Below are positions 2,600 through 19,912 of a stretch of 64,000 nt of DNA, piece after piece. The first letter of the stretch is position 1. Each line of letters starts with the position of its first letter. The position numbers were made by a program, and so were the translations under genes. Source of the DNA: a virus. The notes beneath the pieces are model-generated. The model was not told the origin of the DNA. It did no database searches and saw only the letters and a list, made by a program, of their open reading frames with translations. Location: positions 92,276 to 156,275 of IMG/VR virus record IMGVR_UViG_3300022188_000006; one strand, written 5' to 3'.

Positions 2600-2608
2600 G
2601 TTTGCTTC

Positions 2609-3793
2609 CTACAGTCTGCCGAGACGATAAAGCGCCTCCGTGACATCCGCATACATCCAGGGTATCGAAAAGTATCCACAAGTATAGTTACCCGAACTAT
2701 CACGACCGCTGACTAGCAGCTTGACATCAGCCTCGTCACCGGCACCAGAGAACCTATTTTCGAAGTCGACAACGGCCGACGGAGTATAGCACCTTTGCTC
2801 GCGCCACGTGCCGCTTACGCGACCAAACAGCGGCCCTTGAATCGTCAGCTTTGCCCAATCGAGTCCGTCATCCGAAACAGCCACTCCAATGCCCTCGTGT
2901 AGTGCGCCGGCTCCTCCGGAATAGAACATCATCCACTTTCCGAGAGTAGTCCGGAACACACTACAAGCACCTACGTAGCTGGAATCCCACGGAACAGGAT
3001 TGCCCCAGACGGTACTGCCATGGTCCAGTACCTTGTTATACAAAGAAAAGGTAACACCATCAGGGCTATAACCGAGTCCAATGGACTCAAAAGCACCGGT
3101 GGTGCCATCAAAGAACAGGACGTAGCTGTAGTCGTAGGGATTGCTACCGGAATTGCTAGCACCACTGTTGTAGATCACCGCGCAGGGACCATAGGAGCCG
3201 CGGTTCCAATCCGGATGTGTTCCTGTGACAATCGGAACAGCACCGTTTTGCAGCGGCTGATCATTACTCCAGTTAAGCAGGTCAGACGACTCAGCGGTCC
3301 TGATAGCCTGCACAGAGTATAACTGCGACGTGTCCCAGTAATAGATTCGGAAAGAAGAAGCTCCCGTTTGGACGACCTGGGAATGGTGTGCACCGGACGG
3401 CAAGCCGACAACAGGGTTACCGCCATTCAGGCGTGTCCACGTCGTGAAGTCGTTACTACCGGAAATAATGATGCCTCCACCGGCGTCCACGTCCGAAGAA
3501 TGTAGACACACGTATTTGTAAGCAGTCCCGGCGATGTCGAAGCCATCAGCGAAGTACAGAAGAGTCGGATAATATGCCCTGTCAACCGGAGGGTCGAGCA
3601 CAGGATTCTGATCGTATTCTTCTGGCAAGGCTAGGACCTTCCCGCCACCAGTAACATCCCAAACGCGCTGAAACCCGCCTTGTATGCTGTCACGGAGACG
3701 CTCCATCTCGGCTACCCAGGGCGTCAAACGGCGCTGACCTCGGTTAAGCTGGATCTCCTGTGATCCTCTGTGGTAGAATTGCTGCTGCGTCAT
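2609..3793 (-). CDS. Five-bladed beta-propeller glycoside-hydrolase-like protein (GH32/43/130-type fold)
   Basis: Repeated blade motifs SNDFTTW, SSDLLNW, SPDGVTF, SDDGLDW; WDSSYVG; MFYSG..GIGVAVS. Confidence 0.75.
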   Translation of the reverse strand: MTQQQFYHRGSQEIQLNRGQRRLTPWVAEMERLRDSIQGGFQRVWDVTGGGKVLALPEEYDQNPVLDPPVDRAYYPTLLYFADGFDIAGTAYKYVCLHSSDVDAGGGIIISGSNDFTTWTRLNGGNPVVGLPSGAHHSQVVQTGASSFRIYYWDTSQLYSVQAIRTAESSDLLNWSNDQPLQNGAVPIVTGTHPDWNRGSYGPCAVIYNSGASNSGSNPYDYSYVLFFDGTTGAFESIGLGYSPDGVTFSLYNKVLDHGSTVWGNPVPWDSSYVGACSVFRTTLGKWMMFYSGGAGALHEGIGVAVSDDGLDWAKLTIQGPLFGRVSGTWREQRCYTPSAVVDFENRFSGAGDEADVKLLVSGRDSSGNYTCGYFSIPWMYADVTEALYRLGRL

Positions 3794-4116
3794 CCGACCA
3801 CCCCCTCAAAAATGGCAGCGTAAGCGGCATCCTCTGCGTCCAGCTTCGTCCGCAACCGATCACGCGGAGAGAAAAGGAACTGCTGCCCCCGGGCCACCTC
3901 TGCAAATAGGTATGTGTTATTTACGGACCTGTGCACCTTTTCCAGCACTTCTCCCGCTGGCGCCTTCAGGTCGATTCCATCCATCCAATCCTCGTCAGCG
4001 CGTCCTCGCAGCAATACCGCCTTTCCGTCCTTGACAGCCCATTCCTGGACGATCACACAATCCCGTGTGCGCGGGTTTTGCTCGTAGACGGTCATGACAA
4101 CATTACCAGCGGCCAC
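3790..4116 (-). CDS. Hypothetical protein, putative partner/immunity protein of kinase 4103-4933
   Basis: Overlaps the kinase stop; similar to the C-terminal domain of 15547-17430. Confidence 0.7.
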   Translation of the reverse strand: MAAGNVVMTVYEQNPRTRDCVIVQEWAVKDGKAVLLRGRADEDWMDGIDLKAPAGEVLEKVHRSVNNTYLFAEVARGQQFLFSPRDRLRTKLDAEDAAYAAIFEGVVG

Positions 4117-4933
4117 CTAGTTTCCTCCATGTCCGCATTTTCTTGAGTTCCGAGTGACGCTTGAGAACCCCGTCTAGCTCACGGTCGCCCATTCGTGCCT
4201 CAGTCATTGCTTCCGCAACAGCCTCTAAGTCGGCCTTCTCCAGTATCTGCCGGACATCCTCGGTTATTTCTTTGCCGACGAGTCTCCGCCCAATCACAGA
4301 AAGCATATGCGTCCTGTCATCGCCGGAGGTAAAGGCGTAACCGTTGTCTATAGCGTAAATCCGCTTCTGCGGATCCACGAGCAGATTGCTTGCATGTCGG
4401 TCAATCTGTCCGCAGATAAAGTCGAATGCAGCACAACGATGAAACCAGGGATTTTCTGGATGCTGCCGATAATCGTATCGCCCCGACCGGCGTAACTCAC
4501 TCAACAATGGCAACCTGACCCACGCCATCATAGAACCGGAACCTTCATTGTCTAGCGTTCTGCCGACAACAGGGGGGACCAGGTCGAACCCATATATCCG
4601 GTCCAGCTTATACACCAGAAGCTCTCGCTCCGAAGGGCTCACCTTCGGATCCATTGCCGACAAGTACCGCCCGGTCTCATATCTAAACTCGTGCTTCTTA
4701 AATACAGCCTGTGTACAGTCGATAAAACCCTTGCGGAACGAAGTTTTCAATCTAACTCTCAAGGGACGATGGATCCCCTTGCCGATGGGCTCAGAGTACA
4801 GCTCTTCCGCCTGGGTTAGCACCAGACAACATTTGGCGTGGTCCAGATCGTCCAGACCCTTATCAAGATCAGCCGGCGCGAAGCCGGCCGACCTCCGCAT
4901 ACCGGAGAGTAGCCCACCAGTCAGCGCGTTCAT
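4103..4933 (-). CDS. PI3/PI4-kinase-like (HipA/CtkA-related) kinase
   Basis: AVFK, ERELLVYKLD..VPPVV, FDFICGQIDRHASNLL, IYAIDNGYAF. Confidence 0.85.
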   Translation of the reverse strand: MNALTGGLLSGMRRSAGFAPADLDKGLDDLDHAKCCLVLTQAEELYSEPIGKGIHRPLRVRLKTSFRKGFIDCTQAVFKKHEFRYETGRYLSAMDPKVSPSERELLVYKLDRIYGFDLVPPVVGRTLDNEGSGSMMAWVRLPLLSELRRSGRYDYRQHPENPWFHRCAAFDFICGQIDRHASNLLVDPQKRIYAIDNGYAFTSGDDRTHMLSVIGRRLVGKEITEDVRQILEKADLEAVAEAMTEARMGDRELDGVLKRHSELKKMRTWRKLGGRW

Positions 4934-4969
4934 GCGGTTTCCAGAGATGCCGCTACACAGCAGCCGGCG

Positions 4970-5425
4970 TCATTCGACTTTGAACGTGTGCGTGTGGCCG
5001 TCTGCCTCCTCAACGAGGCCGACCACCTTCACGTCATGCGTGTGGCCGTCGACACTGTCGGTCTTACCGTAAATGACACGCATATCTTTATCCACGAGGG
5101 CTACCACCCTGTGGCAGTGTCGGACCCCGTCTACACCGGCGTCCTGCGTAGTAATCGCCTCGATTTTTCGTTGCCCCGCTTGCTCACGAGCAAACGGCAT
5201 ACTGCCCGTGGTGCATGTGTTGTCCGGCGTGCCCGGACAGTCCACTTCGTTTTCGGCTGCAGCACCTATCCGCAGTCCTTCCCCGTAGGCATTATACCTC
5301 TTGAAGAAGAGAAGCCCAGAGTCGACAGCCACCAGCTCCCAACTAGCCCGACCTAGCTTCTCCAGCGTCGCAGTCAGGTCTCCACATTCAGACAAACTGA
5401 CCGTGTAGTAGTCCCATCCAGGCAT
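4970..5425 (-). CDS. DUF4177-like N-terminus plus His-rich (YmaF-like DGHxH) repeats
   Basis: WDYYTV..LEKLGRASWELVAV; HCHRV, DGHTHDV, DGHTHTF. Confidence 0.6.
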   Translation of the reverse strand: MPGWDYYTVSLSECGDLTATLEKLGRASWELVAVDSGLLFFKRYNAYGEGLRIGAAAENEVDCPGTPDNTCTTGSMPFAREQAGQRKIEAITTQDAGVDGVRHCHRVVALVDKDMRVIYGKTDSVDGHTHDVKVVGLVEEADGHTHTFKVE

Positions 5426-5451
5426 CGCTGCAACCCCCGTTAGATGCTTGA

Positions 5452-5488
5452 GGTCAGGCTGACCGGCCGAAACCGGTCAGCACTGACC
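5452..5488. other. Strong intergenic stem-loop without U-tract
   Basis: GGTCAG-GCTGACCGG-CCGAAA-CCGGTCAGC-A-CTGACC. Confidence 0.5.
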
Positions 5489-5494
5489 GAATCC

Positions 5495-5839
5495 TCAGAC
5501 GCGAGTCGGGCGCGCCCAAGCTCCGAATTGTCCCGGCGCAACACCGACCTGACCACCGCTCCTGGCCACGGAACTGACCACCTTCGGACCGTAGGCGGTC
5601 TCGCCACGTTCCACAGCGATCACCTTGCGAGCGTCCGCGTTGTTGCCCTGGCGAGCCAGATCGGCCATCTTGTCGGCCTCCGCAGGCGGCACACCGGCAG
5701 GGCCAGCATTCGGGATATTCGAATCCACAGGCGGCTGATCGGCGGGCTTTGTCACCATCTTGCTGATTTCCCCGCGCGCTTTACGCGCCTTCGAAACGGC
5801 GCCAGTTCCACCACGAGCAATTGTCGCCTTACCCATCAT
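5495..5839 (-). CDS. Hypothetical protein
   Basis: 114 aa, RBS GGAGG, overlaps the upstream stop. Confidence 0.65.
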   Translation of the reverse strand: MMGKATIARGGTGAVSKARKARGEISKMVTKPADQPPVDSNIPNAGPAGVPPAEADKMADLARQGNNADARKVIAVERGETAYGPKVVSSVARSGGQVGVAPGQFGAWARPTRV

Positions 5840-6180
5840 TCATCCTCCTTGCTTGACTTGACCCCTTCAAACCTGAAACCAGGACAATTTGGGGTCGGAG
5901 AGTCTGGAAATCCTCTACAAATCTGCGGCCTGTCCTCGTAGATGGTACAAACCGCTTCTCCGTTTTCCCACTTCAGAGCGGAACACCTCGCTTCGAAAAT
6001 AACTTCTGCTTCCCGCTCGTTGATCTGTTTGACCGAGACACCTTCGTGCAGGGCCGCCCAGCGTAGAAAATCTTGGGCTGCTGCCATCTCTAAGTCAGTC
6101 GTGGCACCCTCCATTCCAAACTTCAGGACCACCTTCTTGCAACAGTTGCCACACCGCAAGCACTCACCGGTTCTTTCCAT
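5836..6180 (-). CDS. YkgJ-family (CxxCxxCC) cysteine-cluster protein
   Basis: CLRCGNCC ... CSAL ... CTIYEDRPQICRGFP. Confidence 0.85.
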   Translation of the reverse strand: MERTGECLRCGNCCKKVVLKFGMEGATTDLEMAAAQDFLRWAALHEGVSVKQINEREAEVIFEARCSALKWENGEAVCTIYEDRPQICRGFPDSPTPNCPGFRFEGVKSSKEDE

Positions 6181-6941
6181 TACACCACCATCGGAGACAC
6201 ATGCTCGGTCTCCCCGCCGGGCGTGGCCATCTCGGGAAACCGAATGATAATCGAGCTGTCCTTAACAATGTATGGATAAGGGGTCTCCTTGTCCTTCACC
6301 GGGTACGGACCCTTCCCATCGAGTTCAAGCGCGAGGACCCGCTCCTCTTCTGAGAACGGCTCGCTTTTCCGCACCATTACACCGTGCGGATAGCCGTTCT
6401 TTGTCACAAGGCACTTGCATGTGTAGCACTTAGTAACCTTGCCCTGCGGGAAAATGTCGACGACGGCACCATGGACTCCGAGCGGAACCCAGTTTAGCAC
6501 TTGGACTCTATCGCCCACACGTAGGGTCCGCGGTCGCACAAAAGCAGGGGGCTCTTCCGGAACCTCACGCTCAACCCAGAGCTTGTTGGTCTTCCTAGAA
6601 ATGATCTCCCCATCTTTGGCGAGAGCACGAGCCAAAGCTTTTCTGAATTTCTCAGATTCGAGTAGTTCAACCGGATAGCCAGCCTTTTCAAGGGCCGCCG
6701 CCATGATCTGACGCGCCTTCTCTTTCAGCGCGCCTTCGGTCACGGGCTGGTCTTGCGCCGACCCCTTTTGCTCCGACGCCTGATCGTCCTGCTGGTCTTC
6801 GTCCTGTTCCTGCACGTCCTTCAGGATCGGGAACAACGGTTTGTTGAGCTTCGCAGAAAACGTCAGACCCTTACGAATCTCGGCGCCGTGCTCAATCTGA
6901 CTGCTGGAAGTCCATGTTTCTCGGTCGTGGATCTCATTCAT
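6180..6941 (-). CDS. Hypothetical protein with SH3/KOW-like segment
   Basis: 253 aa, RBS AGGAG; LRVGDRVQV...GAVVDI. Confidence 0.65.
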   Translation of the reverse strand: MNEIHDRETWTSSSQIEHGAEIRKGLTFSAKLNKPLFPILKDVQEQDEDQQDDQASEQKGSAQDQPVTEGALKEKARQIMAAALEKAGYPVELLESEKFRKALARALAKDGEIISRKTNKLWVEREVPEEPPAFVRPRTLRVGDRVQVLNWVPLGVHGAVVDIFPQGKVTKCYTCKCLVTKNGYPHGVMVRKSEPFSEEERVLALELDGKGPYPVKDKETPYPYIVKDSSIIIRFPEMATPGGETEHVSPMVV

Positions 6942-6950
6942 TTTATACTC

Positions 6951-7658
6951 CTACGCGAGAAGATCGTCGAGGGCTTTCTCGAAATCTTCTAGGCACTTGC
7001 CCACGAGGCACTCACCTCTGCCACCTTGCCCAAGTCCCGAACCATCCATCCGACCGCCACCCGGACCCATACCACGACGACCTTGCAGCAACCTGGGAGG
7101 CAGGTTTCCGGATGCCGCTTCGGTTTCGCTCTCGCTCGTAGTGGTAGTCTCTTCCTCTTCTTGGTTCGTCAGCCCCTGGAAAGGATGCAAGGCGCCACCA
7201 GCAGCCATATCTGCAGTGTCCATTTTCGTCACGCCGACCACCGACAGAACACCTGGCGCAGCCCAAACAATTCGCTCGCTCCCTGGCAACAGCCGCTGGA
7301 CGTCTACCCGGACAGCCATGTTATCGGAGGCGTCGATACTGTCGACCTGCAACCCGCGTTCGATGCACCACTCCTTGACCTTGGATGAGTTGGCGAACCG
7401 CTTTCTGCTGAACCACAAACTGCCAAGTTCGAAATCCGGCACCGACTTCTGGTAGCGCGTCTCATTGAGCATACCAGTCCATCGGTCATCGCTCAGCTCG
7501 GCCGCCCTTATCGCCTTAAAAGGATTGTCGCAGTACAGGCACTTGTGCTTTGCTCCCACAATCCTCGGGCGCCAAGCTAAAATAGAATCGACGCAGCAAC
7601 CGCGCACATCCTGTACGGCTTCAATGCCGATGCGGCCATCCAGATCCAAGCCAGCCAT
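6951..7658 (-). CDS. Hypothetical protein, possibly head-associated
   Basis: Start moved to ATG 7658 (GGAGG upstream); first gene after the promoter at 7790-7818. Confidence 0.65.
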   Translation of the reverse strand: MAGLDLDGRIGIEAVQDVRGCCVDSILAWRPRIVGAKHKCLYCDNPFKAIRAAELSDDRWTGMLNETRYQKSVPDFELGSLWFSRKRFANSSKVKEWCIERGLQVDSIDASDNMAVRVDVQRLLPGSERIVWAAPGVLSVVGVTKMDTADMAAGGALHPFQGLTNQEEEETTTTSESETEAASGNLPPRLLQGRRGMGPGGGRMDGSGLGQGGRGECLVGKCLEDFEKALDDLLA

Positions 7659-7789
7659 GGTCTTGCCTCCCATGAAGTTGCTTGCAGGACGCGGCCATTC
7701 GCTCTATGCCGGCACCCGAAGCAGACTTGTGTATCCCGCGCACATCGCGGTAGCAAAAGAGTCACAGCAGTATATGCTGCTACAATCCT

Positions 7790-7818
7790 AGTTTATCCCC
7801 TTTTTGATAGTGAGTCAA
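7790..7818 (-). promoter_or_regulatory. Sigma70-like promoter
   Basis: TTGACT-17 nt-TAAACT in the intergenic gap after terL. Confidence 0.65.
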
Positions 7819-7828
7819 GCCTTTCGCA

Positions 7829-9712
7829 CTACACAACGATGACGTTCTGAACGTACTTCGCCGAATCAAAAGGGTTCACAACGAAATCAGGAACGTCTAC
7901 AGCAACCTCGTTCAGACCATCTTCATCGAACTTCCTAGCCATCGCGCGCCGTTGTTTCTCTGCCTTTTTTGCTTCGAGCAACCGCGTTTGCACCTCAGCA
8001 GCGGACGCCTTCTCGATGTCTGGACCAAATTCGTCCTCGAAACGGAAATTCATCATGAGACACATGAGCGCGTCTGGTCCGTGATCCTTCTTCTTTAGGA
8101 TGGCACCGGTAGTCTCGGACCTACGGTAAGCCTTCAGTTGCTCGATTAGTATTTCCAGTGCCTTGTTTATGCGTATGCGCCTGAACACGAAGTACTTCGA
8201 AACATTTTCAATGCCTATCTTCTTCCATGTCCCGAAATTTATCGGCCGCACATCAAAACCAGCGCTAGAGAGTTCCGCGTTGTTGAATGGGTGAGACGAG
8301 TCTGCCAATACGGGGAACTCGCCAAACAGTGTCTTCCAATCGCGCAACTTTGTAGCTACATCGGAGACCAGCACGTGGTCTGTAAACTCAGCCTCATGGA
8401 TATAAACACATTCCCTCGTGCGTATCCCCAGGATCATCACCATGCTTCCCTGAGACTGAATACCCCAGTCGATACCAACCGCCGCCCTATCCACCGCACT
8501 GTCGATAAGGATAGGATCAGTAAGAGAAGCCTCAATCAGCTCAGGTGCATAGACGCAAGACGAATACGACGGGCGTTCGCAGGCAAACTCGGTCTCAAAG
8601 ACGGTCGTCCCGGCATTCATCTCCTTAGCTTCTGACACCATTTTGAAGGTGGCCCAGCCGTCACTGTGGCGCGCCTTTCCGTAACACCCCTTAAATACCT
8701 CTGTCTTCTTACCATCGGGACCATCCACCAAAACCCTGTCCGTCAAATAGCACCTCTTGCAGTACTCAAGAGCTTCCGGATCATCCTCCGTCGCCTCTTC
8801 GAGACCCCTCGTGCATCGTTCCATAGTATCAAACACGTTCCAGTTGTACCGCTGAAATCCCTTCTCCCTGTAACCATCCCAATACTCTTGGAACAGGCCG
8901 TGCGGTATATGGAACGTAGAAAACAAGCACACAATTGAATCCGGCTCTGACAGCGCGCCCTGCAAAGCAGCCCGCATCGCCTTTTCGACTCTGCGGTCCT
9001 CCTGGCAAACCTCGTCCACAAAAATTGTCCCAAAGTGCTTGCCGCGTCCTTGTTTCTCCGTCGCCGGCACACACTTCAAGAGAACACCTGTCACCAACCG
9101 GGTGACATCAGAAAGCGGATCGCCGAGCAGGAGACCGTCACGCAACCCGGGCACAGCATCCCAGAACATCTTCACGTAGTCATAAACAACTTTCGACTGT
9201 TCCCCCGAACCTGCCACATCCAGTATTTCCCGCTTCCAGTAGATGAGGAGCAACCAGATCAGCACAGCAGCCGAAAGAGATCCACCGCCACCACGCGGCT
9301 TCCAAGTGATCGTCTTTCGAACTCGACCAAAAAACACGTCGCCGACCCATTTGATGATCGGCGGAATGAGCTTCACATAGGTCTTTTTGCCGTCCTTAAT
9401 TACGTATAAGGTTTCCCCGACAAATGATGCAAGCCTTTCGTGTTGCCGCTTTATGTATGCTTCTTCACTTTCTTCGTATCCCAAGGGCTCGCGAACCCAG
9501 CCGTCTGTCACGTGCCAGCCTTTTTCGGCAGCCGTAACGGCGCTCATCTCTGGATCATAGACACCCTGCTTGAAGCCACGGGGAAACAGCAGATCAGGCA
9601 AACCGTAAGCACCCGGATATCCCCTTGCGAGACGATCCCTGATCTCTCGCTCAAGCAGCAGAAGCTGTCGTAGCTTCTCCTCTTTGCTTTGGCTCGCCTT
9701 ACGTTTTTTCAC
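7829..9712 (-). CDS. terL: Terminase large subunit
   Basis: Walker A-position WKPRGGGGS, RGKH, Walker B IFVDEV, STF coupling motif, RNase H-like VGIDWG and DHGPDA. Confidence 0.85.
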   Translation of the reverse strand: MKKRKASQSKEEKLRQLLLLEREIRDRLARGYPGAYGLPDLLFPRGFKQGVYDPEMSAVTAAEKGWHVTDGWVREPLGYEESEEAYIKRQHERLASFVGETLYVIKDGKKTYVKLIPPIIKWVGDVFFGRVRKTITWKPRGGGGSLSAAVLIWLLLIYWKREILDVAGSGEQSKVVYDYVKMFWDAVPGLRDGLLLGDPLSDVTRLVTGVLLKCVPATEKQGRGKHFGTIFVDEVCQEDRRVEKAMRAALQGALSEPDSIVCLFSTFHIPHGLFQEYWDGYREKGFQRYNWNVFDTMERCTRGLEEATEDDPEALEYCKRCYLTDRVLVDGPDGKKTEVFKGCYGKARHSDGWATFKMVSEAKEMNAGTTVFETEFACERPSYSSCVYAPELIEASLTDPILIDSAVDRAAVGIDWGIQSQGSMVMILGIRTRECVYIHEAEFTDHVLVSDVATKLRDWKTLFGEFPVLADSSHPFNNAELSSAGFDVRPINFGTWKKIGIENVSKYFVFRRIRINKALEILIEQLKAYRRSETTGAILKKKDHGPDALMCLMMNFRFEDEFGPDIEKASAAEVQTRLLEAKKAEKQRRAMARKFDEDGLNEVAVDVPDFVVNPFDSAKYVQNVIVV

Positions 9713-9760
9713 TGTAACACCGTGGGGCCGCCGTTGCCGACGGCCCCGATCGTCTTCTTT

Positions 9761-10711
9761 CTAGCCCTTCTTGCGGCCTCGCGCAGCCATCTGCTGGAAG
9801 CGCTTCTTCCCGTACTTGGCACGACCGAGACTGGCAGCCAAGGCAGCAGGGTTCTTCACGTCGCCACGCCGCCGCAGCTTGTCCTCCAAAGCCTCGAACC
9901 GGGCGCCTTCACCGGGAGGAGCTTTTGCCGAAGGCTCGCTCTTTCCGCCCTTCAGCGAACCGGGCTTGACCTTCCGTCCCTTACGGGTCTTCTCGATCTC
10001 GAAACCTGGGACCGACTCGTTCTCCTCGCAGAGGCTGTGCAGGATCTCATCCAGGGACTTCCCCGCGGCCGCCATCTCTTGGAACCGCTTCTTGCCCCAC
10101 TTTTTCCGGCCGATCCAAGCAGCCACGGCCTTCGGGTTCTTCACCCCGGGCTTCCCGCGAAGCTCCTCAACAAGCTCATCGAACCGCTTGCCACTGCCAA
10201 GCTTCGGCTTTTTCTTTTCCACCTTACCGTTCAGCGACTTGATCAGATCGTCCTCAGAAAACTCGACAGAAAAGCCGGCTTTGTTGACCCGAATATCCCG
10301 CAAACCCTGGGCAAACAGACCGATTGCCATGATCGCCTTGTGCGCAGCCTTCTCGCACTCAAGAATGAGCGAACGGACGCGATCAGCATCGCTGTCCAGC
10401 TCGTTCACGCTGTCACGGAGACGCTTGCCAACAAGCTCGGCCTGCCGACGAGTCCGGTCCATCTTCACGCCGGGAAGGGTTTCTGCCAGGTCGACGGCCT
10501 GGTCGACGAGGCCTGCACAGGCCAGCACCTTTGCTGCAGCACCGCGCCAGTCTCCCTTTCCGCGAAGCCCCTTGGCCATGTCCACGGCACTTAGAGCCTC
10601 CTCAACCATTGTCAGGAGCATCTCCTTCCTGGTCTTGTTCTTGCTCACCTTGGCGAGGCTCCCAAGAAAGCCCTTCTCAAGGTTCTCGCTCATTTCGTTT
10701 CTCATCGTCAT
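9761..10711 (-). CDS. Basic protein with two copies of a ~47-aa repeat
   Basis: RFxxLxxxL..VKNPxAxAAxxGRxKxGKKRFQxMAAxG occurs twice; RBS AGGAG. Confidence 0.75.
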   Translation of the reverse strand: MTMRNEMSENLEKGFLGSLAKVSKNKTRKEMLLTMVEEALSAVDMAKGLRGKGDWRGAAAKVLACAGLVDQAVDLAETLPGVKMDRTRRQAELVGKRLRDSVNELDSDADRVRSLILECEKAAHKAIMAIGLFAQGLRDIRVNKAGFSVEFSEDDLIKSLNGKVEKKKPKLGSGKRFDELVEELRGKPGVKNPKAVAAWIGRKKWGKKRFQEMAAAGKSLDEILHSLCEENESVPGFEIEKTRKGRKVKPGSLKGGKSEPSAKAPPGEGARFEALEDKLRRRGDVKNPAALAASLGRAKYGKKRFQQMAARGRKKG

Positions 10712-10738
10712 TCTCCTAGCTCTAATGAAACATGGACC

Positions 10739-11375: not shown

Positions 11376-11520
11376 CCCTGATTTCTTTCGCTTCCTTCTT
11401 AGAAACAACACCGGTGCTCTCGGCACCGCTGATTACAGCGCCACGAATCTTTGCGGCATTCCCAGAACGTAGGTGCAGCGACGCCAGATCTCGAAGAACC
11501 TCAGACACAATCTTGTTCAT
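11350..11520 (-). CDS. Small hypothetical protein (56 aa, not in the ORF track)
   Basis: ATGA overlap with the 11517 stop; MNKIVSEVLRDLASLHLRSG...KASGKR*. Confidence 0.55.
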   Translation of the reverse strand: MNKIVSEVLRDLASLHLRSGNAAKIRGAVISGAESTGVVSKKEAKEIRDGKASGKR

Positions 11521-12137: not shown

Positions 12138-12679
12138 GACAGGATCCTCACCGTAACCATGAATGCCATCGGGCGCTTCCCGCGGCGCCTGAATGCTCGC
12201 CCCTGAATCACATACTTGTTACCTTGGCTAAATACTCCTTCGGCTTCCTCCTTGAAACCGTCTGACAAAAGCGCATCTCGCAGATCTGCGATTCTGCGAC
12301 CAACATCCTCCTCTGCATCGCACACGACCGTGATATGGTAGGTATCCCCTCTATGTGCAGAGGGGGAGAGCCGACAGCCGCCCCTCCAGCCGCCCATCTT
12401 CCGCGCGATTCTTGAGGCGAACCGTCTGATCCCGGCATCGCTTTCCTTCACCACACGCTCAATAGCAGCATTAAAGGCGAATAGTTCTTCGGTGGCCAAA
12501 TCCTTCCCATAGTCATCGCAGTCTTCGCACTTTTTCACGACGCCCCAAGCCATTTTGTGGCACAAAGCGTCGTCTTTATGTCGCTCGTAGCAGCTGTTGA
12601 ATACCTCCACCCACTGCCGCTGCTTCTTCTCGCTAAGGCCTCTTAGCTTGCTAGGTGGATTGTTCACGTCGTAAGGCAT
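12134..12679 (-). CDS. ChaB-domain protein with C-terminal extension
   Basis: MPYDVNNPP..L..KQRQWVEVFNSCY...CHKMAWGVVK matches the ChaB pattern; GGAGG before ATG 12679. Confidence 0.75.
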   Translation of the reverse strand: MPYDVNNPPSKLRGLSEKKQRQWVEVFNSCYERHKDDALCHKMAWGVVKKCEDCDDYGKDLATEELFAFNAAIERVVKESDAGIRRFASRIARKMGGWRGGCRLSPSAHRGDTYHITVVCDAEEDVGRRIADLRDALLSDGFKEEAEGVFSQGNKYVIQGRAFRRRGKRPMAFMVTVRILS

Positions 12680-13404
12680 GTTCCAGCCTCCCATTTCTTG
12701 AGGGTATCCTGACAAAACGCTGACAACCCCTCTAGTGCTGATGCAATACCGTTCTCCCGCGAAATAGCGGCAACACCGTGTCCGCGAGCACGCAATTCTC
12801 CCTCCGCAGGCTTCCGCCCGATGACATTGCCCTTCGCATCCATAAGGTAGGTGACACCGTGTCTCGTGACCTGTGCAGCCACACGCGGCAACTTCGTCCG
12901 CGTAGGCTTTTTCTTGGGATGCTCGGGCTTTCTCTCCGGTTTCTTTTCTGGTTTCTTCTCTGACTTTGCACTCGGAGCAGGCAGATTAGCTCGCCGTTCG
13001 CGCCGCTCGAACTCCTCTTTTAGTCTCTCTGGAACTTTGATCCCGTACTTTCCGAAATCTCTCGGATATATTGGCTGCCAAGACCCACCGATCTTCATAT
13101 GTGGCAATAGCCTCGCCCTCGGACCCGACCCGGTCCGATACCACTCGATTCGGCCCTCACTCGCGGGCTTCGGACGCTGGGTAGGACGGGCGCGGCCTTT
13201 CGGTTCCTCGTACACATATATCGGCTTCTTGCCGGGACGCTCGATCTTCCTCTTATATTTGTGTGGTCTCAGCCTCTGGGCAAATCCCATCACCCGGCTC
13301 ACGAAACCGGCCTTCAGTAGTTCCTCGCCGACGCCGCGCGACTTCGATACGTCGAAGACGAAGTCACACAGGGCCAGCAACACATCGAATCGCGCGTCGT
13401 TCAT
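12664..13404 (-). CDS. Basic hypothetical protein with leader and HKY hairpin motif
   Basis: LCDFVFDVSKS..ELLKA..HKYKRKIERPGKKPIYVY; ATGA overlap. Confidence 0.7.
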   Translation of the reverse strand: MNDARFDVLLALCDFVFDVSKSRGVGEELLKAGFVSRVMGFAQRLRPHKYKRKIERPGKKPIYVYEEPKGRARPTQRPKPASEGRIEWYRTGSGPRARLLPHMKIGGSWQPIYPRDFGKYGIKVPERLKEEFERRERRANLPAPSAKSEKKPEKKPERKPEHPKKKPTRTKLPRVAAQVTRHGVTYLMDAKGNVIGRKPAEGELRARGHGVAAISRENGIASALEGLSAFCQDTLKKWEAGTCLTT

Positions 13405-14243
13405 TTTCTTCTGCCGATAATCTGCGCGACACGCCGGACATCGCCCGGCGTATCAATCGAACCTGTCTCTTCAACCAGCTTCGCCAACTTCTTGAGGAAG
13501 TCTAGGTAATGATACCTTTCGAAGAGTTTGTAGCGCACGTTCTCCGGAAGAAGGTTCGGCGAGGGGTACTTTTTCAGTCCTCTCCGCGCTAGCTCTAGCT
13601 CACGCTTGAACGCTTCAAGCCTGTCGCGGTGGATGTCAGACATCTCTGCCGCCATTTCCTGCACAGCGGCATCGAGGTCCTTGATCCGCCTACGCAACTT
13701 CGCCGCAACCTCAGCACTATTCGATACCGAGAGAACATCCGCCAGTCGCTCAATATCGATCAGGCTGCGCCACGCCTCAGCCTTATCAGCATCAATTTGC
13801 CGAACATCACGTTTCCACTGATCATAAACATCCAGCAGACTCACGCCGATATCGGGACTTGTCTTCAGCCACTTCTTTCGCATCAAGTCGTAAACAGCGT
13901 CGTACTTGTCGAGGTCGGCACTTTCTAGGACGAAAAAGTTGATTGGATGCTGCGTCCCGGGAGCAAGCTTACCGCTAAGCCGTGTTGCATTCTCGACAAG
14001 TGCCAGCAAGGTCTCTGGATCGACGTCCACCACAATGGACACATCAATGTCCGACTCAGGATTATATCTGAGTCCGGTAATACTCCCGACCAGGTAAGCA
14101 GCGCGAGGCTTCACACCAAGCAGGAGTTTGCGTGCCTGCTGTCGAATCGCCCCCGCGATCTCCGGTCTGAGTACGTACCTGTCCCCGCGCTTGTACCAAA
14201 CAAGCGGGTCCAGTCCCGGCATCTTTTCATCTAATATGCTCAC
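13401..14243 (-). CDS. Pol-beta superfamily nucleotidyltransferase
   Basis: YLVGS-ITGLRYNPE-SDIDV; helical C-terminal domain. Confidence 0.8.
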   Translation of the reverse strand: MSILDEKMPGLDPLVWYKRGDRYVLRPEIAGAIRQQARKLLLGVKPRAAYLVGSITGLRYNPESDIDVSIVVDVDPETLLALVENATRLSGKLAPGTQHPINFFVLESADLDKYDAVYDLMRKKWLKTSPDIGVSLLDVYDQWKRDVRQIDADKAEAWRSLIDIERLADVLSVSNSAEVAAKLRRRIKDLDAAVQEMAAEMSDIHRDRLEAFKRELELARRGLKKYPSPNLLPENVRYKLFERYHYLDFLKKLAKLVEETGSIDTPGDVRRVAQIIGRRK

Positions 14244-14524
14244 GTCTGGGCCTTCGCTTTCTTTTCTTCTTCGAGGACTGACTCCATGACAAGGAGCGCA
14301 GAATAGTAATCCGGATACTCAGCCAAGTGATCCAACGCAATCTGAGTGGCCACGTCTCGCCTGTCCGTGTGCTCCATCTCGATCTCGATACCGATGGCCA
14401 GCTGAACCGGGTCGACATCTTGCTCGGTAACGCCCTTCTTTGCCGCCATCCCGTTTAGCAGTGGCCTAGTGTCTCCTCTGCTCGACGCCCTCTGTTCTAC
14501 CGCCTTTTGGATTTTGTCAAACAT
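14240..14524 (-). CDS. DUF5661-like protein
   Basis: GIEIEMEHT....A..IALDHLAEYPDYYS. Confidence 0.75.
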   Translation of the reverse strand: MFDKIQKAVEQRASSRGDTRPLLNGMAAKKGVTEQDVDPVQLAIGIEIEMEHTDRRDVATQIALDHLAEYPDYYSALLVMESVLEEEKKAKAQT

Positions 14525-14536
14525 TTTGCTTTCCTG

Positions 14537-15064
14537 TCAGTTGCGCCCAAGCGGATGCTGTGCCATGTCCAGCAGATCCGGACTGTCCTCTCCTACCAAG
14601 TCGTCCAACAATCGTTTCTTCAGTGCTGTTAGTTCTTCCAAGGACGCACGCTCAAGATCTACTCCCTCTATGATGTGCCTGGTCGTCGTCTGTGTTACAG
14701 CCTTGGGAACAACGCCAGCCTCCATAAGAAGACTGGTTCGACGATGCAGGGCCGAAAGGGCCTTGTCCAAAAACGCAGCTCGCTGATTGGCACTCGAAGC
14801 CAGCGAATACTCCGACATGGCGCACCGGTAAATCTCATCGTATTTTTGACAGGCTTCGGCGACCTCGGCAGGTGGCTCAGCGTTCGATGTCTTCTCTGCT
14901 TCCTCTGCCTTCCACTGCTTGATCCAGTTTTCCACGGTCTGCTCTGTGCAACCTACAGCCTCGGCTATGTCGCTCTTGCGTGCACCCCTGATGTAGAGAC
15001 GGATCACGCGATCCTTTAGCCGCTCCCTTTCCTGCTTTGACATAGGGCCACGTCGTCTAGCCAT
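14537..15064 (-). CDS. HTH protein, probable terminase small subunit
   Basis: N-terminal HTH (ARKSDIAEAVGCTEQTVENW), helical core, DLERASLEEL tail; upstream of terL. Confidence 0.6.
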   Translation of the reverse strand: MARRRGPMSKQERERLKDRVIRLYIRGARKSDIAEAVGCTEQTVENWIKQWKAEEAEKTSNAEPPAEVAEACQKYDEIYRCAMSEYSLASSANQRAAFLDKALSALHRRTSLLMEAGVVPKAVTQTTTRHIIEGVDLERASLEELTALKKRLLDDLVGEDSPDLLDMAQHPLGRN

Positions 15065-15068
15065 ACCG

Positions 15069-15572
15069 CTATCCTGCCATTTGCAAGGTGTCGCCTACCT
15101 GCCGAATCCGGCCGGACTTAACAAGTACCTCCACCACCTCAGGAGCAACAGGATTTCTTTTACCATCAACACGCACAAGTACCGGTTGCGTCCCCATGGC
15201 CCTGTGCACCATTGTTATCCTGGCGTCATTTTGCAGAAAGAACATGAGATGGTTCGGATTCCTTATGATTCTTCCATCTGGATAGATCGGGGATCTGGCT
15301 GTCGATAGAGTCTTTGTCCTCGGCTCAAACAGCGTTTCCTTTGACTCAGGTTCTTTTCCTGCTACAGGTTCGCTTTTGCTTCCAAGAACACCGAGAACCT
15401 TGTCCAGCGCCTGCTCCACTGCACGCTCAGCCACTGCTATGTTTAGAGCAGGCGCAATTCTAGTCTTTTGCTCCGCAGGTCCTTTGTCCGCAATGACCGC
15501 GGTCCCGGCAGCACGAAGATTTTCTCCGTCCCAGACAAAATTCGTCTCATTCTGAACCCGGCGCATTGGCAT
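15069..15572 (-). CDS. Hypothetical protein
   Basis: Fills the gap between kinase and HTH genes; start uncertain. Confidence 0.55.
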   Translation of the reverse strand: MPMRRVQNETNFVWDGENLRAAGTAVIADKGPAEQKTRIAPALNIAVAERAVEQALDKVLGVLGSKSEPVAGKEPESKETLFEPRTKTLSTARSPIYPDGRIIRNPNHLMFFLQNDARITMVHRAMGTQPVLVRVDGKRNPVAPEVVEVLVKSGRIRQVGDTLQMAG

Positions 15573-17430
15573 TCGTCCGAGGAACAATTCTGACCATCGA
15601 ACCACAAAAACTCAAGGGCAGATCCTGCACAAACTTCTCTGGGGTGTTCGTCGTAATTCGCTCGCCCAGGGGTCCCAGGTAACCGCCCATTACGTACTCC
15701 ACAAGCGGATTTTCCTCGCCGCTGAGCACCACAACCTTGTCACCCTTTAGGGCGATCTCCCCGACAAGCTTTTGGTCTTTTCCAGCACCGGTGTAGACCT
15801 GCATAATCTCAGCGTTCTCAGACTTCAATATGAAGTCCTCTAGTTGGCGCAGAGCCATCGCAACAGTAGCCATCTCTGCCGCGTGTGGTTTCGGTTTAGG
15901 TGGCTTAGGTGTCTGGAGAGACCTTGCTCCCATGGCAAGCTCTACCATGTTCAACGTGCGAGGTAACCTGCCTTTCTCCTTTATTCGCCTAAGACGCGCA
16001 ATGACACCGTTGGCTTCCTTACCTAGGCCCCATTTTTCCAAGGTTTTCTTTAGTTGTCCCTCGTCTACTTTTTGCAGCTGCGAGACGATCCGCTTGTCTA
16101 TCTTCCCGCCGTTGTACTCATGGGAAAGCCAGTGAGGCACAGACGTAAAACCGTGAAAATCGCCTCGTTCATCACTGATCGGGAAGTTGAACCCATTGTC
16201 GATCGCGAATGCTTGCTTTCGGTCAGCACTGACCAAGTAATTCCCGAAGTGCCTGTCTGTGGCCCCTGTAAGGTAGTCAAAGACGGCCATTTTTTCCACG
16301 GAAAACCTGAAATCAGGATCGTTTTCGAAGTGCATCTGCGTCTTCGCCCGTGAAAAGTCACTCCCGCTCATAGCCCCTTCGACAAAATGCTGCCTAGAAG
16401 CAGAAGCCTCCGGATTCAGTGCAGCCTCTTGCAGTTCCTTCAAGGCTTCTTTTGAGAGCTTATTTTCCTTGTAAGCAGCCTGGAGTTCTGGGTGCATCAG
16501 AACCTGCTTGACAACCCTTGCTCTATCCTCGGCCGCTACCTGCGTCTTTGTCTTTACTGTTGGCGGGACAATGCCGAAACCCAGCAACCTGTCCACCTCA
16601 AAAGCCGCCGCTTCGCGCGCCCCCACCGACACTTTTTCGTTGAGAATACCACGCCGCATGAAACTAATCGGTGGACCAAGTCCATCCGGCTTTGTTACGC
16701 TCTTGCTGCCATCAGGTGCCTGATCGAAGTAAACCAGTGTTCGGCTGTCAATGCCTGCTTGCTCCCGTTTCACCGGGTCAGAGCGCAGAGCTTTTTCTAC
16801 TTGCTCTAGGTGTCCTTCCCAAGGAGCTGACGAGAGTGCACCCTTCTTGTAAACAAAATCTCCCCATCCCGTCTCTTCGTCGTGCTTGGCCGGACCGGCC
16901 TCCCTCTCATCCAGCTTGTCGAGTTTTTCTGCTATCTCCCGCAATATGCCGTAAGCTTTCTGGATCTGCTCGGCATCCCCTTTCTTGAATCCATCACGCA
17001 AAAGCTGAGCAAACTCCTTCGCCCGTGTGCTAATCTGTTCCAGGACCTTCTTCTGATGCTCAGTAGTAGCCTTGGTTTTCATTTCGCGGAACCGCTCACC
17101 GAACTTCTTCATTAGTTCGGCAGACTTCCGCTTCAGGTCCGGTGTTGCCTGCCTCGACGATCTCAACTGTCGGACAACGCTCTCGACCTCCTGGGCCAGC
17201 TTCGATGTCTTCGGGGACGGCCCTGCCACGGTCTCAGTCTTTGCGCCCTTGGGCGGCGTGTCCGAATACTCATAGGTACCATCGGGCAATTTACGCCGCC
17301 AGAGATGGCGCTTCCTGCCCGTGCGTCCCTCTGGGTCTGGGGGCTCCCAATCACCGACCTTCGCTTTCAATAGCAGGCTAAACTGCGTCAGCGATTCAAC
17401 GATGGCTTCCCTGGAAAGATCCGCGATCAC
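15547..17430 (-). CDS. Multidomain protein: leader, hairpin, helical region, PI3/PI4-kinase-like domain, C-terminal partner-like domain
   Basis: SVTKP, AREAAAFEVDRLLGFGIVPPTV, FDYLTGATDRHFGNYL, AFAIDNGFNFP. Confidence 0.85.
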   Translation of the reverse strand: MIADLSREAIVESLTQFSLLLKAKVGDWEPPDPEGRTGRKRHLWRRKLPDGTYEYSDTPPKGAKTETVAGPSPKTSKLAQEVESVVRQLRSSRQATPDLKRKSAELMKKFGERFREMKTKATTEHQKKVLEQISTRAKEFAQLLRDGFKKGDAEQIQKAYGILREIAEKLDKLDEREAGPAKHDEETGWGDFVYKKGALSSAPWEGHLEQVEKALRSDPVKREQAGIDSRTLVYFDQAPDGSKSVTKPDGLGPPISFMRRGILNEKVSVGAREAAAFEVDRLLGFGIVPPTVKTKTQVAAEDRARVVKQVLMHPELQAAYKENKLSKEALKELQEAALNPEASASRQHFVEGAMSGSDFSRAKTQMHFENDPDFRFSVEKMAVFDYLTGATDRHFGNYLVSADRKQAFAIDNGFNFPISDERGDFHGFTSVPHWLSHEYNGGKIDKRIVSQLQKVDEGQLKKTLEKWGLGKEANGVIARLRRIKEKGRLPRTLNMVELAMGARSLQTPKPPKPKPHAAEMATVAMALRQLEDFILKSENAEIMQVYTGAGKDQKLVGEIALKGDKVVVLSGEENPLVEYVMGGYLGPLGERITTNTPEKFVQDLPLSFCGSMVRIVPRTNANAPGSE

Positions 17431-17645
17431 TAGGCGCTAACCTCCCTAACAGCCCCGTCTTCAACAGGAACGACAGGGAAACCAAGAAACTCCTCCGGCA
17501 TAATAAGAGGTTCGCGCTCAAGAATCGGAACGAGTACCGTCCGGCCGTCCGCGCCTTTCCCTACACCAACAGACCGGGCTACCTTTACCTCTCTGTTTAT
17601 GCGCTGGAGCAGTTTCTGTGCGGCAACACGTTCTTCGTTGGTCAT
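17430..17645 (-). CDS. Small protein resembling protease pro-region-like domains
   Basis: SVGVG...VLV...MPEEFLGFPVVPVEDGAV. Confidence 0.55.
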   Translation of the reverse strand: MTNEERVAAQKLLQRINREVKVARSVGVGKGADGRTVLVPILEREPLIMPEEFLGFPVVPVEDGAVREVSA

Positions 17646-17646
17646 T

Positions 17647-18840
17647 TTACGGAATCACTTTCATCAATTGCTTCTCGAAATCAACCAGAGTCTTTTGAAC
17701 TGCTTTCTCGATCAACCCCCTCGGATCCTCGAAAGATTTCCCAGCAGACAAACGGGCGTGCAAACCAGCTGTCATCCGCTCGATGTTAAACTCTTCGCGA
17801 AGGTCGTCTTCGTCATCCTTGAACATAATGATTTTCAGTAGATTTTCGAATTGTTCAGGCGAAAGCTTTTCCATCTGCCGCTTTACCCTATTGAACTCCC
17901 GCATGTTCCTGTAATTTTGGGGATCCATACCATCCAGGAAATCGCGCTTCAACTGCTCTTTTGTCCTCCCCCTTCCACGCCTGCCCAGACTAAGTTTGAA
18001 GTACCCCATTTCGCTCATTAGGCTGTTCAGCAGCTCTTGTTCCTTTTCTGTCAATTTCACCCCAGCAGCCTTCAGAGCTTCTAAGTATCTCCGCTTTGAT
18101 TCTTTTGTCATGTGATCCGCCAAACCAGTGGCCTGTCGCAGCTGCATCACAAGCTTCGTGCCTCGTTTCCGCCCAGTCGGCTCCCAATCCTGCTTTTCCT
18201 TCGCGCCCTTCTTACCTACCTTCTTCATGTACTCGTCGTAAGCCTTCGAGCCACGTCGCACACGAACGATGGTGCCGTCCTTCCTCTTCGTCCATAGAGC
18301 CATGCCGCGTCCCTCAAAGCCAGACTTGGCCCACCAGAATTCCCCGACCTCGCGACGCTTCCGCGGCCCCGTCCGCCCGGCCTGGCCTGTTCCCTTCCCG
18401 CTTGTACCGAGCTTCAAGGCTCTTTTGCGCTGTTGCTTCGTAGTATAGCGTGGCTTCTTCGACTTGACTTTTTTGGGCTTTGCCTTTGCTTTTGCCTGCG
18501 CCCGCTTTTGCTGCATCAGCTTTGCCTTCGTCTTCCCGGACAGCTTGCGTTCTCTCTTTCCGGGTATCTTCCGCGGACGACCCTTGATGCCAACATCGCC
18601 GCCTCGCATGCTAGGCCCAACCGGCGCCTTCCCAAGCTTGATGAGTTCCTCTTCCTCATTCGCAATGAACTCATCTCCTACCCCGGCCATCTGGGCGACC
18701 GACGGGAGCGAGAAAGCGGAAGCCAAATCCCCAGCTTCTTTGCCAAGGACAATGTCCACAGCTCGCTTCTCAGGCAAGTCCTTTTCCTTTCGCCGACGCA
18801 CTGCCTGCTCCAGAATCTCCAACGTTTCGAAAAGCGCCAT
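17647..18840 (-). CDS. Highly basic Lys/Arg-rich protein with VGE-x-W hairpin
   Basis: Start moved to ATG 18840 (AAGGAG); REVGEFWW...LWTKRKDGTIV. Confidence 0.75.
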   Translation of the reverse strand: MALFETLEILEQAVRRRKEKDLPEKRAVDIVLGKEAGDLASAFSLPSVAQMAGVGDEFIANEEEELIKLGKAPVGPSMRGGDVGIKGRPRKIPGKRERKLSGKTKAKLMQQKRAQAKAKAKPKKVKSKKPRYTTKQQRKRALKLGTSGKGTGQAGRTGPRKRREVGEFWWAKSGFEGRGMALWTKRKDGTIVRVRRGSKAYDEYMKKVGKKGAKEKQDWEPTGRKRGTKLVMQLRQATGLADHMTKESKRRYLEALKAAGVKLTEKEQELLNSLMSEMGYFKLSLGRRGRGRTKEQLKRDFLDGMDPQNYRNMREFNRVKRQMEKLSPEQFENLLKIIMFKDDEDDLREEFNIERMTAGLHARLSAGKSFEDPRGLIEKAVQKTLVDFEKQLMKVIP

Positions 18841-18851
18841 CTGCCGCTCCT

Positions 18852-19064
18852 TTACGAACAAAGAGAATGAATGATCTCCTCCGTTCTTATCCTGCGTATC
18901 ACAATCTGCTTTCCAGCCCAGAGACTGGGTAAAGCTTCTCCGACAGGCTCCAACGCACCCGTGACCCACACGTACCACTTATTTGGGCGTTCTTCAACGA
19001 ATACTACGCCCGTCGTGGCACTGAGGGCCAGTTTATACAGATCCGTAGCGACCTTACTGTTCAT
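18852..19064 (-). CDS. Small hypothetical protein, weakly similar to 17430-17645
   Basis: YVWV...LPSLWAGKQIVI; overlaps the SOD stop. Confidence 0.5.
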   Translation of the reverse strand: MNSKVATDLYKLALSATTGVVFVEERPNKWYVWVTGALEPVGEALPSLWAGKQIVIRRIRTEEIIHSLCS

Positions 19065-19773
19065 GCCAGTTCCTGTCAGCAAAGCCCCAGTTGACGAGCT
19101 GTCTTACAGCCTTATTCAGGTACGACCGCCTATCGCTCTGATAGTCGAGATAGTAGGCATGCTCCCACAGGTCTATCGCGAGCAGCGGAGTCATACTCTC
19201 ATCCAGCAGTGGTCCCGCGGCATTTTCCCCGTAAACGACTTCTGGCTCTTCGTTTCTCTTGACCAGCCACAACCAACCGGAGCCAAAGAGTTTATCCCCC
19301 ATGTCTACCATGACACGCCGGCATTCTTCGGTCGAACCATATTTCCTTCGCACCGCAGACAGCAGATCACCTGTTGGCGCTGTGTCCTGACCAGGAGGGG
19401 ATATAGACATCCAATAGAATGCGTGATTCCAGGCTTCCCCCGCACGTCTGGCAAGCACCTTGTTCCCATCTGCTCCAGAAGAAATGAGACTTCTCAGATC
19501 TTCTTGCTCGAATCGAGTCCCGCGAACCATTTCCCTCACAAGATCCACGTACCTCTTGTGTATGCGAACGTGCGCCTCGATTGTATCCCTTGAGAGAGCG
19601 GGCGACAGCTCACCCATCTTGAAAGGTAATGCTGGCATCACTAGGCGGCCAGCAATGTCTGTAGCCGGCTGTTCGTTACCTTTTTGCTGCTTCACCTTTG
19701 TCACAAAGGCTGCATTGCTCCCCACAGATTTCAGGAGAGCCCCAAAACCTCCTAGACCAATGCCTGTCTGCAT
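19054..19773 (-). CDS. sodB: Fe/Mn superoxide dismutase family protein with N-terminal leader
   Basis: LPF...LSP..S..TIEAH, WNHAFYW, FGSGWLWL, DLWEHAYY; GGAGG before ATG 19773. Confidence 0.85.
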   Translation of the reverse strand: MQTGIGLGGFGALLKSVGSNAAFVTKVKQQKGNEQPATDIAGRLVMPALPFKMGELSPALSRDTIEAHVRIHKRYVDLVREMVRGTRFEQEDLRSLISSGADGNKVLARRAGEAWNHAFYWMSISPPGQDTAPTGDLLSAVRRKYGSTEECRRVMVDMGDKLFGSGWLWLVKRNEEPEVVYGENAAGPLLDESMTPLLAIDLWEHAYYLDYQSDRRSYLNKAVRQLVNWGFADRNWHEQ

Positions 19774-19844
19774 GCTCTCCTCCCATACACCGCCGGCAGA
19801 CACCGCCTAGCAGTATCAACCGAAGCAAACGCACTGTTATTTTA

Positions 19845-19873
19845 ATCTTATCTATGCCCGGCAAGGGAGTCAA
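19845..19873 (-). promoter_or_regulatory. Sigma70-like promoter opening the packaging/cargo cluster
   Basis: TTGACT-17 nt-TAAGAT; shares GCTTGACTC...GATAA with the 7790-7818 promoter. Confidence 0.65.
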
Positions 19874-19884
19874 GCAGAAGCAAG

Positions 19885-19912
19885 AGGGGCGCATGGCTGA
19901 TCATGCGCCCCT
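19885..19912 (-). terminator. Terminator-like hairpin
   Basis: 11-bp stem AGGGGCGCATG/CATGCGCCCCT with a weak pyrimidine tail. Confidence 0.5.

Follow-up and report, generated by a model that had tools for sequence, protein, structure and literature searches.

The T4 protease gp21 cuts after Glu, at L/I-x-E, and phiKZ-like proteases recognise a motif that also ends in Glu. In T4, according to the account of Mullaney and Black (1996) relayed in PMC9024508 and PMC10052503, IPI-III and Alt bear an N-terminal capsid-targeting sequence (CTS) that is removed by gp21. In P1, the N-terminal 30 residues of DarB suffice to bring this large enzyme, or a reporter, into the head (PMC9024508), and in SPN3US and other phiKZ-like phages many head and ejection proteins have N-terminal propeptides with one protease motif (the gp245 substrates of SPN3US; PMC10052503, PMC7411985). 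Cutting after a basic residue is described for the HK97-like gp32 of Staphylococcus aureus phage phi12, where the capsid protein (CP) is cut after R128 and Ccm after K87 (PMC8569155); this protease was the only literature support found for Lys-type cutting (K or R). Here we describe a candidate system of this kind in the final 64 kb of a 156,275-bp virus contig from an uncultivated tailed phage (IMG/VR record IMGVR_UViG_3300022188_000006); the whole 64,000-nucleotide stretch is referred to as the window. Within positions 3790-19873 of the window, unrelated proteins carry a short leader that ends in hydrophobic-x-Lys. We read this leader, with a probability of roughly 0.55, as a T4-CTS-like capsid-targeting propeptide that would be cut after Lys by the phage's own head-maturation protease.

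The motif [LIVMFYW]-x-K-[ASG] was found 43 times in the 22 proteins of region 3790-19873, against 27.2 +/- 5.0 in shuffled sequences (z 3.2-3.3), and showed no excess in the three other segments of the genome (z -0.5 to 0.9). The recurrence of the motif in this region, noticed in a preliminary description of this DNA, was upheld, and all the motif strings quoted in that description are present at the genes named. Its figure of about 20 motif-bearing genes was overstated: chance alone would place one match somewhere in a protein, and what truly exceeds chance is approximately 6-8 N-terminal sites. The first 31 residues contain 12 sites where 3.5 are expected (z 4.65), and the motif falls in this stretch in 10 of the 22 proteins (3.2 expected). 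The N-terminal excess persisted after start codons had been curated by Shine-Dalgarno sites, those of genes 10739 and 12664 being doubtful, and local shuffling of residues 2-40 gave a comparison of 10 vs 4.0 (p 0.008), with 3 vs 4.1 for the reversed motif.

A broader comparison covered 4081 class patterns, each of four positions, within residues 1-45, and set the proteins of the zone around the large terminase (terL) and the head genes against all others in five phages. This discriminative enumeration was used because a zero-or-one-occurrence-per-sequence expectation-maximisation (ZOOPS-EM) finder was too weak a tool; in the N-termini it returned equally weak motifs in zone and control. Patterns caused by homology aside, hydrophobic-[polar/acidic]-K-small ranked first. 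When homologues were collapsed to clusters, the motif with Asp, Glu, Asn or Gln before the Lys gave an odds ratio (OR) of 5.2 (p 7e-4), and the local-shuffle z was 3.0 in the zone vs 1.1 outside it. An aromatic residue 2-7 positions before hydrophobic-x-K was found in 20 vs 10.9 clusters in the zone and in 47 vs 57 outside. Control patterns with Arg, with Glu or in reversed order were flat in three of the four tests.

The excess also recurs in related phages. With the capsid protein as query, 30 related IMG/VR loci were retrieved at 59-91% identity; kinase 2, a PI3/PI4-kinase-like enzyme of the region, and terL returned no matches to related loci as single queries. Four whole relatives (G001, G003, G004 and G005; 48-68% GC) were scanned in sliding windows of 20 genes. 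N-terminal sites peak around terL and the head genes in G003 (11 vs 2.3), G004 (8 vs 2.0) and G005 (12 vs 2.6, and 56 vs 26 for whole proteins), while G001 had no significant motif peak in such windows. None of the four whole relatives has the right half of the region (SOD to ChaB); the SOD and a basic 443-aa protein are absent from them or nearly so. More distant syntenic contigs (L073, L075 and L076) were reached via SOD homologues, and for these the database gene calls were used. The syntenic order runs NIF, NYN, ribonucleotide reductase (RNR), SOD, a 75-aa gene and a basic protein of 417-551 aa, then a 70-aa gene, the kinase, its partner and a terS-like gene, followed by a WYL/DUF5661 gene, a basic protein, a nucleotidyltransferase (NTase) and ChaB, and finally the homologue of gene 9761, terL and the homologues of genes 6951 and 6180. 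In the syntenic block of these three contigs, 23 of 48 proteins have the motif in their first 40 residues vs 12.0 +/- 2.9, a count matched by none of 1000 local shuffles. The block upstream gave 7 of 23 vs 4.8, and the Arg and reversed controls were flat.

The leader is best resolved on two enzymes. The Fe/Mn superoxide dismutase (SOD; 19054-19773, minus strand) opens with a leader of 15 residues (19729-19773, minus strand) that reads L-x-x-F-x-x-L-L-K and then Ser, followed by a linker of approximately 30 aa and the Fe/Mn SOD domains. As had been proposed, this leader is an extension ahead of the domain, since the Pfam domains begin only at residue 56 of the long open reading frame (ORF), which is residue 46 when counted from the ATG at 19773 that is preceded by a Shine-Dalgarno site. 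The leader is present in 19 of 19 aligned relatives (43-55% identical, 229-263 aa), with Leu and Trp/Phe conserved in at least 90%. At their N-terminus the relatives have a helix of approximately 16 residues, h-E-K-[A/S]-L-x-L-x-x-W-x-x-h-L-K (h, hydrophobic), and the SOD of this phage matches its second half, L-x-x-F-x-x-L-L-K. The linker of the relatives, 15-40 residues of biased and variable composition, precedes the SOD domain. As a separate observation on this enzyme, the conserved string A-x-Q-A-W-N-H contains a Glu at 19435-19437 where 21 of 21 close homologues have Gln, a replacement that may alter metal redox tuning or activity.

Kinase 2 (PI3_PI4_kinase-like; 15547-17430, minus strand) has a leader with the same L-x-x-F-x-x-L-L-K spacing, here followed by Ala, in residues 1-22 (17365-17430, minus strand), and 11 of 12 orthologues (27-38% identity) keep h-x-K-[S/A]...A-L-E-x-F-N...h-x-K in their first 31 residues. 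A second copy, L-E-D-F-I-L-K and then S, stands where the kinase meets a C-terminal domain of approximately 90-95 aa (motif, 15820-15852, minus strand; domain, 15547-15852). In L071 (14554-14823) and L076 (9723-9983) this domain has its own small gene behind the kinase; in L073 and P0123 it is fused to the kinase, with h-x-K at the same junction. This is a case of genes fused or split at a border that the motif marks. A 108-aa ORF at 3790-4116, after kinase 1, was considered as a copy of the same domain, which BLASTP did not support (E 1.6).

Across orthologues, the leader consensus is L-x-x-[F/W], 2-7 residues and hydrophobic-x-K, with a variable linker behind it; at the position after Lys we observed A, S, G, T, Q, D, E, K and R. 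The alignments indicate that the leader is a real portable module on unrelated proteins, conserved while the linker that follows it varies. In the relatives, the same type of leader is found on WYL-like, Lys/Ala-rich 339-aa, AAA+ 939-aa, ART-like 1100-aa and DUF5661 proteins, and two paralogues have an identical predicted mature start behind different leaders. In this genome the DUF5661 protein begins with F-x-x-I-Q-K and then A (residues 1-7; 14504-14524, minus strand), and the leader of its L075 counterpart, 17 aa long, is similar to that of the SOD on the same contig. The leader of the basic 246-aa protein of gene 12664 combines a L-x-D-F-x-x-x-V-x-K/S site with a L-L-K/A site (13312-13404, minus strand) and is of the same type as that of the syntenic WYL-like proteins in L071 and L073 (F-x-x-x-V-h-E-K, then G-R-V). 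A basic 314-aa protein (9761-10705) has an 11-residue leader ending in L-E-K and then G (10673-10705, minus strand); its L075 orthologue keeps M-E-K and then G together with the same mature start. This 314-aa protein also contains the string G-K-K-R-F-Q-x-M-A-A twice, in the middle of the protein and at its C-terminus.

In some families the motif stands elsewhere. The 397-aa basic protein and the 6951 family have C-terminal versions. The former (17647-18840; net charge +42) ends in I-E-K/A followed by a helix F-x-x-x-L-x-K (17650-17724, minus strand), and its orthologues in L071 and L073 keep the C-terminal helix F-[DE]-x-x-L-x-x-[IL]-[IL]-K and have h-x-K followed by S at the N-terminus as well. 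The 235-aa protein of the 6951 family (6951-7658), encoded next to terL, ends in the helix L-E-D-F-E-K-A-L-D-D-L-L (6954-6992, minus strand). The L075 orthologue retains D/I-F-E-K-A of this helix, from which the other relatives diverge. The same protein contains, directly after h-x-K, a copy of the capsid N-arm peptide, T-x-D-h-x-x-G-G-x-L-x-P (7182-7229, minus strand). In the family, G-G-x-h-x-P-x-Q-[G/Q] is present in 6 of 6 members (Q in L075, G in the other five) and h-x-K stands ahead of it in 4 of 6. By imitating the N-arm of the capsid protein, the 235-aa protein may become part of the shell.

Two further families conform at their N-termini. In the 253-aa protein (6180-6941) the leader spans residues 1-24 and ends in I-R-K and then G (6870-6941, minus strand); x-K-[S/G/A] stands at the same place in G001, G003, G004, G005 and L075, and the P3 residue is hydrophobic in 5 of 6 members. 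The 114-aa protein of the 5495 family has two A-R-x-G...h-x-K modules at its N-terminus (5759-5839, minus strand; predicted cuts after K17 and K27), both of which are kept in four of the four whole relatives. This family as a whole consists of repeated modules of that kind, and the G004 version has expanded to 256 aa with Thr/Pro-rich spacers. A family of approximately 850 aa in the relatives (genes 3, 5 and 6 of G003, which are three paralogues; gene 81 of G004; L075:13137-15341) has a mature part that opens with N-P-W-H-D or H-W-H-N-P directly behind a Lys-ended leader. A search of PHROGs with ten leader-bearing proteins returned no match. The leader was found in no phage for RNR, NTase, the terS-like protein, ChaB or the 70-aa proteins.

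Further evidence comes from the head genes. They lie left of the window and include the portal (L005:14931-16802, minus strand), a 625-aa protein (L005:13027-14904, minus strand) and the major capsid protein (L005:11613-12974, minus strand), the portal and capsid proteins being HK97-type by Pfam. For the 625-aa protein, residues 1-200 were modelled with a pLDDT of 77, and the modelled domain aligns with T4 gp21 (5jbl) at Z 12.0 over 135 residues and 3.0 Å (VIA-align), and with herpesvirus proteases at Z up to 8.3 (varicella-zoster virus protease). His65 and Ser122 of this domain are invariant in 19 relatives. By this model, the 625-aa protein is a protease of the assemblin/T4 gp21 fold fused to a scaffold. 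Foldseek alone gave a weak result for the model, and a sequence profile search of the PDB with the protease alignment returned spurious leucine-rich-repeat matches only. The remaining 425 residues are acidic and scaffold-like, with 6 motif sites where 2.1 are expected; over five phages the scaffold part contains 36 sites vs 14.8 expected (Poisson 2e-6). In the capsid protein of approximately 26 relatives, [E/A/L/T]-h-h-E-K, mostly with E at the first position, directly precedes the conserved N-arm, and the prefix in front of it varies in length and sequence. Capsid and scaffold proteins thus carry the same site as the leaders, a check that had been proposed in the preliminary description. A comparable site is present in the portal of many relatives.

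In the mechanism that we propose, the head-maturation protease would recognise the motif and cut there. In accessory proteins the motif would close a short amphipathic helix, usually N-terminal and sometimes C-terminal or internal, that docks the protein to the scaffold core or the inner shell during procapsid assembly. The assemblin-fold protease, fused to the acidic scaffold, would then cut after the Lys, freeing the cargo inside the head while the scaffold is degraded and the capsid protein is trimmed, and the cargo would exit with the DNA at infection. Its proposed members are the SOD, kinase 2 and its partner domain, the DUF5661 protein, the 6180 and 5495 families and several very basic proteins. 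The earlier idea of a portable packaging and maturation tag survives as a portable conserved module on unrelated proteins and does not extend to every cargo named. Kinase 1 (PI3_PI4-kinase-like; 4103-4933) begins with L-D-K and then G (4859-4933, minus strand), a site that is absent or different in G001, G003, G004 and G005 and is probably not conserved, and ChaB is without a leader in every relative.

Several observations weigh against this reading. Neither the SOD nor the kinase orthologues conserve the position after Lys; the small residue (A, S or G) that had been described as part of the motif is not kept. The effect was moderate in the pattern comparison once homologues were collapsed to clusters (OR 2.0, p 0.014), and in the fourth control test the reversed motif was mildly enriched in the zone clusters (20 vs 12.6, z 2.4). 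The 625-aa protein has no Pfam match (Peptidase_S78 and U35 included) and no PHROG match, and because no protease family matches by sequence, its specificity cannot be read from its family. Self-cleavage of the protease at its N-terminal h-x-K-A is doubtful, as K16-A17 lies inside the first beta-strand of the model and the apparent site may be structural. A predicted complex of the protease domain with the SOD leader spoke neither for nor against binding and is a weak point. The capsid prefix is just 9-20 residues long and its conservation could likewise be structural; the capsid protein of the distant Streptomyces phage Yaboi has an equivalent motif at its very start, at residues 5-9. Finally, the portal site is missing in several relatives.

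Some of these points would suit an explanation by chance or composition, in which Lys-rich amphipathic N-termini of late proteins yield a loose four-residue pattern that was picked post hoc. The motif is short, with approximately one match expected per 200-250 residues, it was not recovered by de novo EM, and its effect is moderate without homologues; nevertheless, local shuffles that keep the N-terminal composition still give a z of 3.0 (1.1 outside the zone), neither the Arg nor the Glu control shows enrichment, and the excess was replicated in other genomes with independent gene calls. Among the quoted examples, that of kinase 1 is unconserved and those of 10739 and 12664 have doubtful start codons, whereas the leaders are conserved position by position among SODs at 43-55% identity and kinase orthologues at 27-38%. 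These orthologue alignments already refute the explanation in large part, and we consider it quite improbable. A signal handled by the host, such as an export signal, a degron or a chaperone tag, is more improbable still. It is suggested by a Gly-rich hydrophobic run of 11 residues in the SOD leader of this phage, but the orthologous leaders have charged residues within the helix and neither a basic n-region nor a long hydrophobic core, and the capsid, scaffold and portal proteins with the same mark stay in the cytoplasm. Reading of the alignments for the features of Sec, Tat and lipoprotein signal peptides did not reveal them.

An uncut helix that docks or localises its protein to a common partner, with the terminal Lys as part of the binding surface, has more to be said for it. 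Scaffold and portal are candidates for this partner, as are a factory for replication or assembly and the cell membrane, where PI3/PI4-kinase-like enzymes could plausibly act. Conservation is highest at the upstream Leu, the aromatic residue and the hydrophobic-Lys pair, not at the residue after Lys, and for the C-terminal copies removal by a protease would hardly be needed. This explanation fits less well with the enrichment of the hydrophobic-x-K-small string in the scaffold, the position of the motif before the conserved capsid N-arm, its occurrence between the kinase and its partner at a point where relatives have a gene border, and the presence of a maturation protease fused to the scaffold. 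Docking and cutting are moreover compatible, as T4 does both. We regard a helix that docks without being cut as rather unlikely, and the propeptide that is docked and then cut after Lys as the preferred reading.

The arrangement of genes in the region provides context for these proteins. Nearly all genes of the window are on the minus strand. The large terminase gene (7829-9712, minus strand; phrog_9) is itself without a leader and lies at the centre of the motif-rich block; by tblastn its product is 37-50% identical to that of the four whole relatives. The P-loop of terL (9277-9306) reads W-K-P-R-G-G-G-G-S, with no Lys at the usual Walker A place, and is taken as a feature of the lineage and not an error because the same string occurs in terL of G003 and G005. 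Region 3790-19873 further encodes a CxxCxxCC protein, ChaB, a nucleotidyltransferase, the DUF5661 protein, a helix-turn-helix (HTH)/terminase-small-like protein and five very basic proteins with net charges of +18 to +42. To its right are a class II RNR and replication genes; sheath, tape measure and baseplate genes are left of the window, as are the head genes. The two look-alike promoters of the preliminary description were found again, one upstream of the SOD gene (19845-19873, minus strand) and one downstream of terL (7790-7818, minus strand). Both are sigma-70-like, with a common 9-base stretch that includes the -35 hexamer TTGACT, and a -10 core GATAA. A terminator-like hairpin precedes the first (19885-19912) and another follows the second (7762-7785). 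Since these hairpins adjoin both promoter-like sites, the sequence suggests two transcription units, one from SOD to terL and one from 6951 onward. At the left end of the window, a collagen-like fibre protein with G-x-x repeats (1-2191, at least 730 aa) runs past the edge, and a 394-aa protein two genes upstream of it (2609-3793) has a weak match to glycoside hydrolase 43. Among the distant contigs, L073 has inteins with LAGLIDADG homing endonuclease domains, by Pfam matches, in its RNR (1592-6847) and its AAA+ protein (13882-16701).

The propeptide reading may be extended from this genome to its clade. Tentatively, and with somewhat less confidence than for the propeptide itself, we suggest that uncultivated HK97-type myophages of approximately 100 to more than 225 kb and 48-68% GC might use an undescribed Lys-ended address-and-cut code by which exchangeable enzymes are loaded and delivered with the DNA, and that an accessory protein might expose a copy of the capsid N-arm after the cut for a place in or on the shell. 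The cargo set under this code comprises the SOD, PI3/4-like kinases and a partner domain that would be released by the cut, ART-like and AAA+ proteins and histone-like basic proteins. If so, the proteins injected with the DNA could be read from sequence alone across a broad clade of uncultivated phages, and the predicted set would include a SOD and lipid-kinase-like kinases, which to our knowledge are not known as head cargo. The T4 principle of tagging, loading and cutting would then also hold in phages with HK97-type head genes under a different rule, cutting after Lys, and a tag of 15-25 residues would be available to try for loading foreign proteins into capsids. For annotation, tryptic proteomics would be blind to these maturation sites because trypsin likewise cuts after Lys.

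Set beside the known systems, the locus resembles several of them in part. Encapsulins also use a short peptide and a flexible linker on unrelated enzymes to direct them into an HK97-fold shell. Unlike encapsulins, this phage has a portal, terminase, sheath and tape measure, and its peptide consensus differs; we know of no protease step in encapsulins. An encapsulin-like reading of some leaders, based on the string G-I-G-L, was rejected, as orthologues do not keep the string. With systems of the HK97 gp4 type the phage shares HK97-type capsid and portal proteins, but those systems remove a delta domain of approximately 100 residues that acts as a scaffold, and their phages are not known to carry tagged cargo. 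As in phiKZ-like phages, the motif recurs several times within propeptides and the scaffold, whereas phiKZ-like genomes exceed 200 kb and their propeptides are long and do not form one common helix. P1 is likewise a myophage with a processed capsid protein; the DarB signal is not described as a consensus common to many P1 proteins, and a sequence similarity to it was not found here.

The closest likeness is to the CTS of T4. In both, a short N-terminal amphipathic leader is carried by unrelated proteins, and a protease of the same fold (Z 12) is present. The T4 CTS ends in a motif that gp21 also uses on the capsid and scaffold, and here the same motif stands on leader, capsid and scaffold, at cut sites that are predicted. 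Unlike in T4, Lys and not Glu is conserved, and the cut would follow the Lys; the control pattern with Glu, the residue that ends the gp21 site L/I-x-E, was not enriched. The capsid and portal are HK97-type by Pfam and not of the gp23/gp20 type, scaffold and protease form one protein, the latter part with no match to any sequence family, and the leader consensus and the cargo (SOD, PI3/4-like kinases, WYL and ART-like proteins) are different. The system described here would thus work like the CTS of T4, yet it is not a member of the T4 CTS family.

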